Shown here in pieces: positions 1 through 55,358 of a DNA stretch of 64,000 nucleotides (positions within the stretch are counted from its first letter, which is position 1; each line of letters begins with the position of its first letter). Position numbers and translations under genes: made by a program. Origin of the DNA: an uncultured Desulfatibacillum sp. (GTDB lineage: Bacteria > Desulfobacterota > Desulfobacteria > Desulfobacterales > SpSt-501); contig CAYRUF010000020.1 of NCBI GenBank assembly GCA_964427375.1, positions 563 to 64,562 of the forward strand, read 5' to 3'. The notes beneath the pieces are model-generated. The model did not search any database and was not told the origin of the DNA. It was given only the letters and a program-made list of their open reading frames with translations.

Positions 1-408
1 TTCAGCGCGAAGACTGCCTCAAATCCTCTCAACCCGACAACCGCCGCGCGGGTCTCCGGTGATGTCGTGTCCATGCCGGCGACCCATTTCGACGACGGCA
101 AGGCGCGCTACTTCGAGCACCAACACGGCGGCATCACCATCCGTTACTTCGTGGTGAAGAGCGCCGACGGAGTCCTGCGGGCGGCCTTCGATGCCTGCGA
201 CGTATGCTGGCCGGCCGGCAAGGGCTATGCCCAGGACGGCGATTTCATGGTCTGCCGGAACTGCGGCCAGCGCTTCCACTCGACCAAGGTGAACGAGGTC
301 AAGGGCGGCTGCAATCCGGCGCCGCTGGAGCGCCGCGTTGAAAACGGGATGCTGGTGATCCGGGTGGGCGACATCCTCGAAGGCAAAACCTACTTTGACC
401 TAATTTGA
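1..408 (+). CDS. DUF2318 family Fe-S-containing protein (5' partial; C-terminus altered by MITE insertion)
   Basis: Frame is open from base 1; motifs DACDVC..KGY..MVCRNCGQRF..GGCNP are typical of DUF2318; the stop TGA (406-408) lies inside the MITE end. Confidence 0.8.
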   Translation, partial: FSAKTASNPLNPTTAARVSGDVVSMPATHFDDGKARYFEHQHGGITIRYFVVKSADGVLRAAFDACDVCWPAGKGYAQDGDFMVCRNCGQRFHSTKVNEVKGGCNPAPLERRVENGMLVIRVGDILEGKTYFDLI

Positions 409-695
409 GCGATTCTCACAGTGATGGTTATGGTAAGGTCCGCCGGGGTGTTCGCCCCGCAGGGCCCGCCGCAAAAGGCTCCCAGGCTTCGTCGACGCCC
501 CAAGGGTTTCCACAATGGCTCCTCACAGGCAGCGACGGCCGAGTGGGTCGTGAGCTCTGCCGTCCGGGGCTATCCGGGCCTATCTGAGCGGCATTGCTGC
601 CGTTGAGACGGCCACCGGAAAAATTGCAGCGGACCCTGCGGGGCGAACCCCCCCGGCGGACTCCACGGTCGGGTAATCCAATCGCTCAATTCAGG
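399..695 (-). mobile_element. ~297 bp non-autonomous MITE, copy 1
   Basis: Ends CCTAATTTGAGCGATT (399-414) / AATCGCTCAATTCAGG (680-695); flanking direct repeat TTTGA (394-398, 696-700); internal IR 438-474/624-661; core similar to copies at 7.8 and 15.5 kb. Confidence 0.85.
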
Positions 696-722
696 TTTGA
701 CTTTTCCAGAAAGGCCTGAGCC

Positions 723-7802: not shown

Positions 7803-7812
7803 CAAATTGCAA

Positions 7813-8107
7813 CCCAAATTGAGCGATTTTATCAGCTGACAGCGGAGCCCGTCGGGGTATGCGCCCCGCCGGGCCGCCGCAAAAGACGCCCAGGCTTCGT
7901 CAACGCCCCCGGGGTTTCTCCCATGGCTCCGCACCGGCAGCGACGGCCGAGTCGGCCGTGAGCGCTGCCGTCCGGGGCTATCTGGGCCTATCTGAGCGGG
8001 ATGGCTGCCGTCGAGAGACGGCTACTGAAAAATTGCGGCGGTCCGGCGGGGCGCATACCCCGACGGGCCTTCCCCTAACAATCCGTGTAAGAATCGCTCA
8101 AACTGTA
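7813..8107 (+). mobile_element. ~295 bp MITE, copy 2 (core in opposite orientation)
   Basis: CCCAAATTGAGCGATT (7813-7828) and AATCGCTCAA (8092-8101); flanks TGCAA/TGAAA; internal IR 7847-7882/8033-8068 with 35/36 match. Confidence 0.85.
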
Positions 8108-8132
8108 TGAAAGAAAAGCAGCGCGACAGGCC

Positions 8133-15449: not shown

Positions 15450-15466
15450 CGATTTCCCTTCTGATA

Positions 15467-15759
15467 CCCAAATTGAGCGATTTTATTGCCTGACAGCGGA
15501 GTCCGCAGGCGTGTGCGCCCCGCCGGACCGCCGCAATTTTTCAGTAGCCGTCTCGACGGCAGCCATTCCGCTCAGATAGGCCCAGACAGCCCCGGACGGT
15601 AGAGCCCACGACCCATTCGGCCGGCACTGCCTGTAAGGAGCTATGGGAGAAACCCCGGGGGCGTTGACGAAGCCTGGGCGTCTTTTGCGGCGGTCCGGCG
15701 GGGCGCACACCCCTGCGGACCTTCCCATGACAATAAATGCGATAATCCCTCAAACGATG
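15467..15759 (+). mobile_element. ~293 bp MITE, copy 3
   Basis: CCCAAATTGAGCGATT (15467-15482) and AATCCCTCAA (15744-15753); perfect TSD TGATA (15462-15466, 15760-15764); internal IR 15501-15536/15685-15720 with 35/36 match. Confidence 0.87.
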
Positions 15760-15805
15760 TGATAGAGAACCCATCGCTGGGACGAGACGGGTGCGACCGC
15801 CGACC

Positions 15806-50621: not shown

Positions 50622-51776
50622 ATGAGACCCGCTGCCGCAGCCATGCCGAGTGTCAGCCGCGGACGCTCCGCCAGCACCGTCTATGACGTGCAGCTGCTGT
50701 TTCCGGTGCTCTTCCTGGTGGGGATCGGCATCGTCATGGTCTACAGCGCGAGCTCGGCCTTGGCCATGAAAAAGTTCGGCTCGGATTACTACTTTTTGAA
50801 AAAGCAGGCCATGTTCGCGCTGGCGGGCATTTGCGTGCTCGTGCTCGCTCGGCACGTGCCCTACCGGCTCTACCGGCCGTTGGCCTATCCGCTGCTGGCG
50901 GCGGCGCTGGTCCTGCTGGCGGCGGTCCTGTTTTCGCCGCTGGGGATCACGGCCGGCGGGGCGAGCCGGTGGCTCGGGCTGGGGCCGCTGCGGTTCCAGC
51001 CCTCGGAATTCGCCCGTTTCGCGCTGGTCGTCTACCTGGCCTATTCCCTGGAGAAAAAAGCCGAGCGCATCAAGGAGTTCTCGATCGGATTCGTGCCTCA
51101 TGTGGTGGTTCTGGGCGCGGTGGCGGTCCTGATCCTGAAGCAGCCCGACTTCGGATCCGTGGCCATTCTCGCCGTGCTGACCTGGCTGATGATGTTCGTC
51201 GGCGGCGTCCGGATGCTGTATTTGGGCAGCTCCTGCCTGGTCCTGGGGGCGGCCGGAGGGTATTTCATCACCCGGGCCGGCTACCGCATGCGCCGGCTGC
51301 TGAGCTTCCTGGATCCCTGGCAGTACAGCGCCGACGCCGGCTATCAGATCGTGCACTCGTTGATGGCCTTCGGCACGGGCGGCTGGTGGGGGACCGGCAT
51401 CGGCAAGGGCTACCAGAAGCTGTTCTATCTGCCCGAGCCCCACACGGACTTCATTTTTTCGGTGATCGGCGAGGAGCTGGGCCTGGTCGGCGTGCTGGTG
51501 ATCATCCTGCTCTATCTGATGATCATCTGGAAGGGCATCCGCATTGCGCGGCACGCCACCGATCTGTTCGGCAGCTATTTGGCCATCGGCCTCACCGCGG
51601 CGCTCGGCCTGCAGATCTGCATCAACATGGCGGTCACCCTGGGGCTGCTGCCGACCAAGGGGCTGACCCTCCCGTTTCTGAGCTACGGCGGAACGTCGCT
51701 GCTGTTGAACATGGCCACGATCGGCATCCTGATGAATATCGGCGCCGCCGCCCCGGCCGGACGAGGTGCGGCATGA
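50622..51776 (+). CDS. ftsW: lipid II polymerase FtsW
   Basis: GASRW, QPSEF, QPDFG, LPEPHTDFIFS, PFLSYGGTS. Confidence 0.95.
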   Translation: MRPAAAAMPSVSRGRSASTVYDVQLLFPVLFLVGIGIVMVYSASSALAMKKFGSDYYFLKKQAMFALAGICVLVLARHVPYRLYRPLAYPLLAAALVLLAAVLFSPLGITAGGASRWLGLGPLRFQPSEFARFALVVYLAYSLEKKAERIKEFSIGFVPHVVVLGAVAVLILKQPDFGSVAILAVLTWLMMFVGGVRMLYLGSSCLVLGAAGGYFITRAGYRMRRLLSFLDPWQYSADAGYQIVHSLMAFGTGGWWGTGIGKGYQKLFYLPEPHTDFIFSVIGEELGLVGVLVIILLYLMIIWKGIRIARHATDLFGSYLAIGLTAALGLQICINMAVTLGLLPTKGLTLPFLSYGGTSLLLNMATIGILMNIGAAAPAGRGAA

Positions 51777-52942
51777 CGGCGCGCGGATGCAGCCCCGCCT
51801 CCGGCGGCCCGTGCGCGCTGCGCATCGTCATCGCCGGCGGCGGCACGGGCGGCCACCTCTTCCCGGGCATCGCCGTCGCCGAAGAGATCCGGGCCCGTCA
51901 TCCCGGCCACCAGGTTCTTTTCATCAGCCGGGGCAACGAATTCGAGCGCACGGCCCTGGCGGCCGCGGGCTTTCCGCTCGCGACCATCTCGGTCGAAGGG
52001 CTCAAGGGCCGCGGCCCGTGGAACCAGCTGCGGGGGCTCTGCCGCCTGCCGGTGAGCCTCGTCCAGTCGCTCCGGCGGCTGCGGGCGTTCCGGCCGCATC
52101 TGGTCATCGGCCTGGGCAGCTACGCGGCCGGGCCGGTGGTGACGGCCGCCTGGCTGCGCAGAATCCCGGTGGCGCTGTGCGAGCAGAATGTCCGGCCGGG
52201 CGTCACCAACCGGGTCCTGGCGCGGCTGGCCGAGCGGATCTTCACCTCCTTCGATCAAACCGAAGCCGGGTTCGACGCCGCCAAGGTTGATTGGACCGGC
52301 AATCCGCTGCGGCGGCAGATTGTCGAGAAATGCGCCCGCCCCGCGCCGCCCGGCCCCGCGCCGGCCGCGCCTTTCACGGTGCTGGTGCTCGGGGGCAGCC
52401 AGGGGGCCCATCGCATCAACACCGCCGTGATCGAGGCGCTCGGCGGCCTCGGCGATCCGGCCGGATTCTTTTTCATTCATCAGACCGGCCACGCGGATGA
52501 GGCGATGGTGGCCGAGGGCTATCGACGATCGGGGGTGGCCGCCCGCGTGCAGGCGTTTTTCGAGGACATGGCCGACCAATACGAACCGGCGCACCTGGTC
52601 GTCTGCCGGGCCGGGGCGACCACGGTGGCGGAGATCACCGCGCTGGGCAAGGCGTCCGTTTTGATCCCCTACCCCCACGCAGCCGATGGCCACCAGCATC
52701 TCAATGCCCGGCGGCTGGCGGATGCCGGCGCGGCCGAGCTGATCGACGAGCGGGAGTTGAGCGGCGAACGCTTGAGCGAGCGCATCCGGTTTTTCGCCTC
52801 CCATCCGGAGGTTCTGAAACGGATGGAACAACACGCGTCCCGGCTGGGCAAGCCGGATGCGGCCCGCCGCATCGTCGACGCGTGCGTCCGGCTGGTCGCG
52901 GAGCGCACCCCGGGCCGACGGGCCAACCGGCTGACGGGCTAA
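51773..52942 (+). CDS. murG: MurG glycosyltransferase
   Basis: GGGTGGHLFPG, EQN..PG.TN, GNPLR, LGGSQGA, CRAGATT. Confidence 0.95.
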   Translation: MTARGCSPASGGPCALRIVIAGGGTGGHLFPGIAVAEEIRARHPGHQVLFISRGNEFERTALAAAGFPLATISVEGLKGRGPWNQLRGLCRLPVSLVQSLRRLRAFRPHLVIGLGSYAAGPVVTAAWLRRIPVALCEQNVRPGVTNRVLARLAERIFTSFDQTEAGFDAAKVDWTGNPLRRQIVEKCARPAPPGPAPAAPFTVLVLGGSQGAHRINTAVIEALGGLGDPAGFFFIHQTGHADEAMVAEGYRRSGVAARVQAFFEDMADQYEPAHLVVCRAGATTVAEITALGKASVLIPYPHAADGHQHLNARRLADAGAAELIDERELSGERLSERIRFFASHPEVLKRMEQHASRLGKPDAARRIVDACVRLVAERTPGRRANRLTG

Positions 52943-52957
52943 CGGACGAACGACACC

Positions 52958-54364
52958 ATGTATCGCAAAAAATATCACATCCACTTCGTGGGCGTCGGCG
53001 GCATCGGGATGAGCGGCATCGCCGAGCTGCTGCTCAACCTGGGCTACACCGTGTCCGGTTCGGACCTCCGAGCGTCCGACATCACCGAACGTCTGCGCTC
53101 GCTGGGCGGGACCATCCACGAGGGGCATGCCGCCGAACAGATCGAAGGCGCGGACGTAGTGGTGACCTCCTCGGCTGTGCGGCCGGAGAACCCGGAAGTG
53201 CAGGCCGCCCATCAGGCTTCGATCCCCGTGATCCCGCGGGCGGAGATGCTGGCGGAGCTGATGCGGCTGAAATACAGCGTCGCGGTGGCCGGGGCCCACG
53301 GCAAGACCACCACGACATCGATCATCGCGGCCGTGCTGGCCAGCGGCGGGCTGGATCCGACGGTCGTGATCGGCGGCAAGCTGATCGGCGTCGGCACCAA
53401 CGCCGTGCTGGGCCGCGGCGATTTTATCGTGGCCGAGGCGGACGAAAGCGACGGCTCGTTCTTGCGGTATTCGCCGGCCATCGCGGTCGTCACCAACATC
53501 GACCGCGAGCACCTCGATTATTATGCGGATCTGGCCGCCATCCAGCGGGTTTTTTTGGAATTCATCGACCGCATTCCGTTTTACGGCCTGGCGGTCCTCT
53601 GCCTGGACAACGAACCCATCCAGGGCCTGCTCCCGCAGATCAAAAAGCGCTACACGACCTACGGGACGAACCCGCAGGCCGACTTCCAGATCCGCCACGT
53701 CGTGGTCGAGGGCCGCCGCACCCGCTTCAGCGTCTTTCACCGCCGGCGCAAGCTCGGCCGCTTCAAGCTGAACCTGCCCGGGGTGCACAACGTCTACAAC
53801 GCCACCGCCAGCATTGTGGTGGCGACCGAACTCGATATTCCGGTCGCACGCATCCAGAGCGCTCTGCAGAGTTTGGCCGGCGTGCAGCGGCGGCTGGAGG
53901 TCAAGGGGGAGGTGAACGGGGTCACCGTCGTGGACGACTACGGCCACCACCCCACGGAGATCAAGATGACCCTGCAGGCCGTGCGCGAAGGTTGGCCCGA
54001 GCGCCGCATGGTGGTTGCGTTCCAACCCCATCGTTACACCCGCACGCGCGCCCTGATGGAGGAATTCTCGCGGGCGTTCTACCAATCGGATGTCGTGGTC
54101 ATCCTGCCGATCTACGCCGCCAGCGAAGAACCGCTGGAGGGAGTCACCGGGCAGGCCCTCGGCCGGCAGATCGTCGCCCACGGCCACAAGCAGGTGGTCT
54201 TCGCCGACGGCATCGCCGATGCGGCGGAGCAGCTGAAATCCCTGCTGGCGCCCGGCGACCTGCTGCTGACCCTGGGCGCCGGCGACGTCTGGAAGGTCGG
54301 CGTCGACCTGCTGCAGACAACCTGGACGGCTGCCGGGAACCCCGTTGAACGGAGGCTCGCATGA
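52958..54364 (+). CDS. murC: UDP-MurNAc:L-Ala ligase
   Basis: [49 protein letters not shown]. Confidence 0.95.
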
Positions 54365-54389
54365 AGGCGCGCTCGCGCGAGCGGCACCG

Positions 54390-55358
54390 ATGGAGGATCG
54401 GATGAGACGGATCACCCCCAGCGTGCGCCGGCCGCCGCGGACCGGCCACCGGCGGGCGCCCCGCCAGAACATCAGCCGGCGGACCGTGGCCCAACGCCAC
54501 CGCTCCTGGCTGCGGCGGCTGGTGGCGGCGATCTGGCTGGCCGTCGTCACGGCCGGGGTGTTGTTCGTCAGCGTTTTTTTCATCTTCCTGCATGATGTGT
54601 TCACCCAGAGCGAGCATTTCCAGGCGCACCAGATCCACGTCGAAGGCGGCCGGCGCCTGTCCCGGCAGCTCATCCTCGATCAGGCCGGCGTCCGGCCGGG
54701 AATCAATGTGCTCAGCGTCAACCTGGCGGCCGCCCGCAAACGGCTGCTGGCGCATCCCTGGATTGCCGAGGCGGAGATTCAGCGTGAAATTCCCGCGACG
54801 CTGCGCATCCGCATTCGGGAGCATGTCGGGGCGGCCGTGGTGGATGTCGGACGCAAGTTCCTGCTCAGCCCCCAAGGCGAGCTTTTCAAGGAATGGGAAC
54901 CTTCGGATCCGGCGGACCTTCCGTCCGTGGTCGGGCTGGCCGCTGCCGACCTGCGTGTGGCGGATCGTGCGGCCGCGGCCGCAGGCCCGGCCTTTTTCGA
55001 CGCGGGCGGGCCGGCTGCGCCGCCGCCCCCTCCCAGCCGGGCGATGGATGCGGTGCTGCAGGTGCTCCTCCTGGGCCGCGAGCCGGAGAGCGTTCTCTCC
55101 ACCCGCGAGCTGCGATCGATCCAGGTGGACCGGGAGCTGGGCCTGACGCTGATAGCGTATGCGGAGAACCGCGCCATCCGGCTGGGATACAACGACTATC
55201 CCGCCAAATACCATCTGCTCCGGGATCTGCTGGCCTTTTTCCGCACCCAGCCGAACGTCGCGGATTTCGAGCGGATCGATCTGACCGATATGAACCGGGT
55301 CATTGTCAACCCGATCCGGGCCGAGATCCCGAAAAAAACGGGCCCGCAAGGAGGTTAA
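54390..55358 (+). CDS. ftsQ: cell division protein FtsQ/DivIB
   Basis: Basic N-terminus, single TM, POTRA-like segment, PWIAEA, C-terminal IDL; position before ftsA (start uncertain). Confidence 0.82.
   Translation: MEDRMRRITPSVRRPPRTGHRRAPRQNISRRTVAQRHRSWLRRLVAAIWLAVVTAGVLFVSVFFIFLHDVFTQSEHFQAHQIHVEGGRRLSRQLILDQAGVRPGINVLSVNLAAARKRLLAHPWIAEAEIQREIPATLRIRIREHVGAAVVDVGRKFLLSPQGELFKEWEPSDPADLPSVVGLAAADLRVADRAAAAAGPAFFDAGGPAAPPPPPSRAMDAVLQVLLLGREPESVLSTRELRSIQVDRELGLTLIAYAENRAIRLGYNDYPAKYHLLRDLLAFFRTQPNVADFERIDLTDMNRVIVNPIRAEIPKKTGPQGG

Follow-up and report, generated by a model that had tools for sequence, protein, structure and literature searches.

A MITE family of uncultured Desulfobacterota whose core occurs in both orientations between inner inverted repeats

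Three copies in the window and their neighbouring genes

The window (the whole stretch of DNA that was analysed, 64,000 nt in length) is a metagenome contig from an uncultured member of the Desulfobacterales. Its genes are those of an ordinary chromosome and include branched-chain keto-acid dehydrogenase genes, two Lon proteases and the mraZ–ftsZ division cluster. A 996-codon open frame without a Pfam match was noted on the minus strand at 51683–54673, with 83% G+C at first codon positions. It runs antisense to the expected positions of ftsW, murG, murC and ftsQ in the division cluster and is almost certainly a spurious high-GC antisense ORF.

Three elements of ~295 bp lie in the window: copy 1 (399–695), copy 2 (7813–8107) and copy 3 (15467–15759). 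They share one layout, made up of fixed outer arms A and B, which are short and asymmetric, a pair of 36-bp inner inverted repeats (IRs) and a core of ~150 bp. On the plus strand of copies 2 and 3, the order is arm A, IR, core, IR, arm B. The arms and IRs of these two plus strands align base for base, but the cores align only after one of them is reverse-complemented. The plus strand of copy 3 and the minus strand of copy 1 are colinear from end to end at 80% identity. It is the core of copy 2, then, that is reversed with respect to copies 1 and 3. A first-pass annotation of the sequence had described this layout with copy 2 flipped, and both the layout and its coordinates were confirmed by alignment and by mapping of the IRs and core. 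The outline of the element needed completing: a 16-bp terminal inverted repeat and a 5-bp target-site duplication had been missed, and the unit proper is 7813–8107 with TGCAA/TGAAA flanks.

Copy 2 is preceded by its left target-site duplication, TGCAA (7808–7812), four of the five positions of which match the right one, TGAAA (8108–8112). The element begins with the A-end terminal inverted repeat CCCAAATTGAGCGATT (7813–7828, plus strand), followed by the arm A spacer TTATCAGCTGACAGCGGA (7829–7846, plus), which aligns with 15483–15500 of copy 3 in the same orientation. The left arm of the inner IR (7847–7882, plus, 36 nt) is 97% complementary to the right arm (8033–8068, plus), with which it pairs across 150 nt. 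Between them lies the core (7883–8032), which by blastn is forward on the plus strand, i.e., flipped with respect to the A-to-B order of the arms and opposite to copies 1 and 3. The arm B spacer (8069–8091, plus) aligns with 15721–15743 of copy 3, again in the same orientation. The B-end terminal inverted repeat (8092–8107) reads TACAGTTTGAGCGATT on the minus strand, its outer 5 nt being degenerate.

Copies 1 and 3 have the standard arrangement. Copy 1 runs from A to B on the minus strand, with its core (475–622) forward on the plus strand, and is flanked by a perfect TTTGA duplication (394–398 and 696–700). Its inner IRs (445–474/624–653) are 30 nt long and 90% complementary, or 37 nt long with one indel allowed. 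Copy 3 runs from A to B on the plus strand, with its core (15537–15684) forward on the minus strand; it has a perfect TGATA duplication (15462–15466 and 15760–15764) and 36-nt inner IRs that are 97% complementary (15501–15536/15685–15720).

Copies 2 and 3 were found in the same states in two assemblies from other JGI samples (L001 and L002), in which the region is 99.98–99.99% identical. As these assemblies are independent, copy 2 does not owe its flipped state to an error of assembly, and unrelated contigs also show the flipped layout. A Logan contig breaks at 8026, but this is no sign of heterogeneity: a 39-nt stretch exactly common to copies 2 and 3 explains it.

The insertion point of copy 1 falls within the last codons of an FtrD-like gene (67–408), directly upstream of a MacB/FtsX gene. 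These genes are only 3–4 bp apart in a relative (L137), and copy 1 therefore lies inside an operon. With the element in place, the gap is about 300 bp and the C-terminus of the FtrD-like protein has changed from ...YFDFSRKA (L137) to ...YFDLI (window 394–722). The insertion has thus split an operon and rewritten the last codons of a gene. Copy 2 lies between convergent genes, beside an acyl-CoA dehydrogenase gene whose product is 87–89% identical to that of Desulfatibacillum-like MAGs. In a relative (L134:3300–4360, acyl-CoA dehydrogenase 92% identical), the intergenic site of copy 2 is occupied by a MazE/PemK (MazF) toxin–antitoxin pair instead. Mobile DNA has settled at this junction of convergent genes more than once.

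A recently active MITE family

We collected further copies with one metagenome scan for a conserved 22-mer of the core, which returned 50 loci, four of them unrelated coding sequence, and by blastn within the fetched loci. This yielded 52 distinct copies, including the three of the window, in the window and about 0.3 Mb of metagenome contigs. A single sample (Ga0316628) supplied most of the loci, which may stem from several related populations. Their flanks have about 60% G+C, and the encoded proteins resemble those of Desulfobacterales and Syntrophobacteria MAGs. Selection by an exact core 22-mer leaves diverged copies under-sampled and is blind to the orientation of the core with respect to the arms. 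The invariance of the block GGGGCTnTCnGGGCCTATCTGAGCGG was discounted as a sign of conservation, because it was by this pattern that the metagenome copies had been retrieved.

The standard arrangement (arm B', IR, forward core, IR, arm A') was found in 42 copies, 27 with both arms and 15 cut by contig ends. Eight copies, or 15%, were flipped: copy 2, L011, L023 (the same as L045), L035:3146, L048, L015:2392, and partial L024 and L036. The remaining two (L040 and L049) are chimeric, each having an arm A on either side. Hence copy 2 is not alone in its orientation.

The ends of the copies are those of a transposable element. A 16-bp terminal inverted repeat, CCYAAnTTGAGCGATT, bounds the window copies and most metagenome copies on both sides, the latter terminating in the same 16-mer consensus, CCTAAnTTGAGCGATT. 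Among the 24 copies with both ends recognisable, a 5-bp target duplication was perfect in nine and had at most one mismatch in 14, compared with 0/24 in a shifted control. Precise empty sites were detected in related strains for copy 2 (L054, L135 and L136), copy 1 (L137), L025, L017 and L011 (L146). The relatives with empty copy 1 or copy 2 sites have 88–92% protein identity to the window, and the duplicated pentamer is present in them once, as a single TTTGA at the copy 1 site in L137 and a single TTTCA/TGAAA at the uninterrupted copy 2 site in L054, L135 and L136. Contigs L017 and L025, which are 90–94% identical, each carry a copy that is absent from the other, and L146 is empty where L011 holds a flipped copy.

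The elements measure about 295–310 bp and have no conserved reading frame; the core was tried as a small ORF and rejected, as any frame is broken by 1-nt indels. The whole unit folds as one hairpin of −183 kcal/mol, with a z-score of about −10 to −12 on either strand. Together, the terminal repeats, 5-bp duplications, empty sites and polymorphism between strains show that the elements are true MITEs and that the family has been active recently, which agrees with their initial identification as mobile elements. Strains with about 90% protein identity can be told apart by these insertions, and so the element could serve as a strain marker.

This MITE family of Desulfobacterota appears to be previously undescribed, having no match in Rfam, PLSDB or GTDB representatives by exact-pattern and blastn searches. 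A GTDB genome scan with the most conserved core 22-mer gave 0 matches, no copy of the family was present in 1.19 Mb around homologues of the neighbouring gene (80 Desulfobacterota MAG loci), and blastn of copy 2 against the PLSDB plasmids gave no match. A literature search by a 10-mer of the terminal repeat returned primers only. In Rfam 15, the whole window had no match at gathering thresholds; a permissive scan around copy 2 (E up to 10) gave a best score of 18.9 bits against a threshold of 44.2 bits, which is not credible. Scans of IMG/VR with the IR and the terminal repeat returned nothing or unrelated sequences (six unrelated matches, of which the one inspected, L142, was phage DNA). An autonomous partner with the same terminal repeats was detected neither by these IMG/VR scans nor by searches for terminal-repeat-like sites and long shared segments in the window and in L004–L053. 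IS1380-like elements have ends beginning with CCTA and 4–5-bp duplications and may be a candidate for the transposase family.

Orientation of the core and origin of the flipped copies

The flipped copies were scattered over the neighbour-joining tree of cores, which was built on 150 nt and is weakly resolved. For four of the five full-length flipped copies, the nearest core was that of a standard copy, and the same held for the nearest arms. The core closest to that of copy 2 belongs to standard copy 3 (90.5% in the core), and these two copies come from a different host lineage than the other flipped copies. One arm subtype is common to flipped L011 and L036 and standard L030 and L039. Since the flipped copies are scattered and mostly nearest to standard ones, the core flip occurred several independent times. 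Target duplications were kept by flipped copies L011 (TGAAA), L023 (TATGA), copy 2 (TGCAA/TGAAA) and L035 (TTGCA/TTGGA), and hence the rearrangement was internal to the element. It may have happened in situ, or else before the copy transposed to its present site, same-locus comparisons being between consensus contigs. The alignment and the census thus uphold the initial description of an inner cassette inverted against fixed arms, with the inner IRs as the pivot.

The two arms of the inner IR were found to change together. Across the family they are 36–39 bp long, 97–100% complementary and G+C-rich. In an IR alignment of 33 full copies with a 37-pair stem, 97.3% of the cells were paired, and compensatory change was seen in 13 of the 37 stem pairs, compared with an expected 2.6 ± 1.1 (500 column shuffles, none of which reached 13). 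Slid controls gave 1–5 two-sided pairs. Several double changes were confined to single copies (L009, L023, L025 and L028). Between copies 2 and 3, the left IRs differ at six of 36 positions, whereas the two arms within each copy differ at only one. One-sided changes split about evenly between G-U-type and A-C-type, which argues for a DNA-level process and not for selection on one RNA strand. The co-evolution could instead reflect selection for a hairpin needed by transposition or by an RNA.

In our view, the flips are probably, with somewhat better than even confidence, recurrent inverted-repeat-mediated inversions that arise as a slow mutational by-product of the architecture and not from a regulated or enzyme-driven phase switch. 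The whole unit inserts with 5-bp target duplications, through a transposase that would be supplied in trans. Because it sits between two nearly perfect inverted repeats, the core would occasionally be inverted by homology-driven events between them. Candidate routes, all leading to the same outcome, are replication template switching, recombination or gene conversion, within one copy or with an antiparallel copy. The same events would keep both repeat arms of each copy identical, and slippage at the hairpin base may delete one arm and the core to give short forms of ~100 bp. Recurrent inversion, within-copy co-evolution of the arms and deletions at the hairpin base form the pattern predicted by template-switch or recombination processes at inverted repeats. 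A 150-bp spacer would fit recombination better than template switching, yet 36–39 bp is near the lower homology limit of RecA. The first-pass annotation had named a hairpin-mediated origin among its options, which comes close to this explanation in its mechanism though not in the built-in switch attached to it. Template switching between the arms of inverted repeats has been described as homogenising the arms and inverting the spacer, recurrently and reversibly, the documented cases having arms of about 10–16 bp and spacers of 2–5 bp (PMC8604942).

Alternatively, the IR–core–IR segment could be a small independent mobile element. It would insert, in either orientation, at the palindromic centre of a carrier MITE of ~100 bp with the order arm B', hairpin, arm A', much as the annotation had proposed a second mini-element inserting at one site. 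Several forms would suit such nesting. Four elements of ~95–105 bp combine the same ends and arms with a single IR unit, whole or partial, and contain no core (L015:8566–8669, L021:5060–5130, L022:6624–6686 and L146:7311–7404). A different cargo of ~190 bp occupies the same chassis (ends, arms and the outer ~20 bp of the IR) at L051:5420–5724 and L007:2157–2450, so that the chassis is modular, and relatives of this cargo were found outside any such chassis at three loci of Desulfobacterota MAGs (L058:11435–11583, L110:5879–6047 and L120:8018–8096). Another MITE is nested inside one core (L015:2508–2640). Against nesting, none of the 52 cores lay outside the arm chassis (some arms being degenerate or cut by a contig end), and a bare A|B junction was absent from the copies found. 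The IRs are not flanked by a direct duplication; their flanks, AGG...CCT, are inverted and part of the palindrome. In addition, the short forms already hold one IR unit, so that an insertion would need to create an inverted copy of its own target. These forms are rare (four versus about 50), contain the IR unit in either orientation and have their junctions at GGCCC/GGGCC microhomology, at the hairpin base. They are better read as deletions at this microhomology, which is the simpler explanation, and we regard the nested arrangement as highly improbable.

Some of these additional sequences deserve description in their own right. The five ~190-bp cargo sequences, when aligned, form a long imperfect hairpin with 12 compensatory pairs; the cargo may represent a structured RNA not yet described, or else a further MITE core. 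Rfam scans of L051 and L110 gave no match. The unrelated MITE-like element nested in a core of L015 is ~130–140 bp long and has the ends AGAAATGGnTTnAAA. An element of this type, with the ends CCATCTCAAAAAT, replaces one end of another copy (L017:8900–9040), and L144:3890–4030 is possibly related to it. The host genomes appear rich in small mobile repeats.

A further possibility is that ectopic recombination or gene conversion between copies, including chromosomal inversions, reshuffles arms A and B around an unchanged core. The two copies with arm A at both ends (L040:40–360 and L049:2460–2770) are the expected product of the left IR of one copy crossing with the right IR of another, and their lack of matching target duplications is as expected from recombination (chromosomal inversion) between two separate copies. 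Exchange may also be recorded by L033:860–1150 and L053:1260–1550, which have one flank and the element in common (about 98%) and a wholly different other arm and flank; the cause is either that copies recombined or that the assembly is chimeric at the repeat. A single crossover between copies, however, would destroy the matching 5-bp duplications, which are kept by the flipped A..B copies listed above. Moreover, to obtain A..B from B'..A', both arms would have to be swapped simultaneously. Arm exchange is thus a rather unlikely source of the flipped copies, and its antiparallel gene-conversion version is a mechanistic variant of the inverted-repeat-mediated inversion that we favour.

The orientation of the elements with respect to neighbouring genes was assessed with GC3-guided, heuristic gene calls, which replaced a crude ORF-based test that had given 21:17. 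In standard copies, the forward strand of the core was sense to neighbouring genes in 27 cases and antisense in nine (binomial p = 0.004), and in flipped copies it was sense in two, antisense in three and mixed in three. The early observation, made on three copies, that the forward strand of the core follows adjacent transcription therefore extends to the standard copies of the family, without being attributable to the core: core and arms are locked together in standard copies, and flipped copies are too few to tell them apart. An insertion bias relative to replication explains the 27:9 ratio equally as well as selection at the RNA level. The ratio hints at orientation-dependent selection or insertion bias, which a purely neutral model would not predict.

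As a structured RNA, the core was suggestive at best. Helices predicted by RNAalifold had 0 compensatory pairs, and alternative local hairpins had one lineage-level compensatory pair, with one-sided changes mostly of the G-U type. Two such hairpins were located at alignment columns 107–123 and 174–189 (7935–7951 and 8003–8024 in copy 2). There, pairing is kept mainly by one-sided changes of the G-U type on the forward strand, and one pair has switched from A-U to C-G between host lineages. Taken with the 27:9 bias, these G-U-kept hairpins hint weakly that the forward transcript may have a role.

We also weighed a programmed switch, in which a site-specific recombinase or transposase acts on the inner IRs and loci flip reversibly, altering the expression of their neighbours. 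Long, well-kept inverted repeats bracket the core, both orientations occur in the family through recurrent flips, and standard copies have a non-random orientation with respect to neighbouring genes; in-situ inversion has also been reported for Correia elements (Elbeyioglu et al. 2017, as cited in PMC10969869). Other results oppose it. Pfam scans and precomputed Pfam matches, which covered the window, identified no recombinase, transposase or HUH nuclease domain among its 53 ORFs, although such an enzyme had been suggested as something to look for. Simple consensus scans found zero promoter-like or terminator-like sites inside copies 1–3 on either strand, and the sole terminator near copy 2 belongs to the dehydrogenase gene and has been conserved at the empty sites. 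The annotation had suggested that a T5 tract beside the IR could change read-through upon flipping; the A5/T5 tract is not conserved in the family, since it adjoins the IR in the window copies only, its place in the metagenome copies being taken by GGCGARATTGCGG. Each of the four loci that could be compared between two or three samples (copy 2, copy 3, L023/L045 and L028/L041) showed a single orientation, as did the shared right side of L033/L053, all in consensus assemblies, in which a minority orientation would be invisible. Finally, a fast reversible switch would tend to 50%, far from the 15% of flipped copies, and the predicted internal structure of the core is without covariation support. 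The proposal of a built-in invertible switch thus fared poorly, and we consider a programmed switch very unlikely.

Every copy might also be a hairpin-driven flip-flop cassette that inverts in vivo at a measurable rate and whose orientation is relevant to the host, for example through an orientation-specific RNA structure in operon transcripts, but we think this highly improbable. Were it true, Desulfobacterota would possess stochastic switches dispersed over the genome and carried by a transposon. Frequent flips in vivo would amount to a new kind of dispersed phase-variation device, which the present evidence does not favour.

Comparison with known systems

Among MITEs, the closest named precedent is the Correia repeat-enclosed elements (CREE) of Neisseria. 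These are likewise short and non-coding, with terminal inverted repeats and a conserved core, and lie beside or between genes. Correia elements have terminal repeats of about 26 bp and a TA duplication. The inversion reported for them concerns the unit between the terminal repeats, without fixed outer arms that would reveal a flip. In the Desulfobacterota MITE, the pivot is instead a second, internal pair of repeats of 36–39 bp, and the outer arms and the 5-bp duplication stay fixed, which is what makes the flip visible at all. A further difference is that no promoters or IHF site were detected in the Desulfobacterota MITE.

REP, BIME and REPIN sequences also consist of G+C-rich imperfect palindromic units inverted around a linker, and are intergenic, mosaic and present in high copy number. 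REP-type elements lack both terminal inverted repeats and target duplications and depend on RAYT (HUH) transposases for their mobility, whereas the present family has terminal repeats and 5-bp duplications, and the window contains no RAYT/HUH gene. The fimS and hin switches and the invertible promoters of Bacteroides resemble it in that a stretch of DNA between inverted repeats occurs in either orientation. Each of these switches is a single locus that encloses a promoter or coding segment, has its invertase next to it and is heterogeneous in the population. By comparison, no internal promoter or coding segment, no invertase in the window and no mixed-orientation locus in consensus assemblies were found for the MITE described here.

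Chunjie, a MITE of Geobacter uraniireducens, is A+T-rich and has 21-bp terminal repeats and 9-bp direct repeats (PMC3184786). It resembles the Desulfobacterota MITE in its deltaproteobacterial-type host, its very stable hairpin and its location inside an operon (as for copy 1), but is not of the same family. With the present family, a lineage that is uncultured and poorly studied gains a recently active MITE.

Quasipalindrome (Ripley-type) events share with the family arms that are identical within a copy and diverge between copies, and a spacer found in both orientations (PMC8604942). The Desulfobacterota MITE differs from them in the length of its arms (36–39 bp) and spacer (150 bp), and in being a multicopy transposon, every copy of which counts as a replicate independent of the others. 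Inverted spacers, homogenised arms and hairpin deletions are recorded in dozens of independent copies, on a scale beyond the cases usually documented, which makes the family a natural replicated experiment on long inverted repeats in bacterial genomes.
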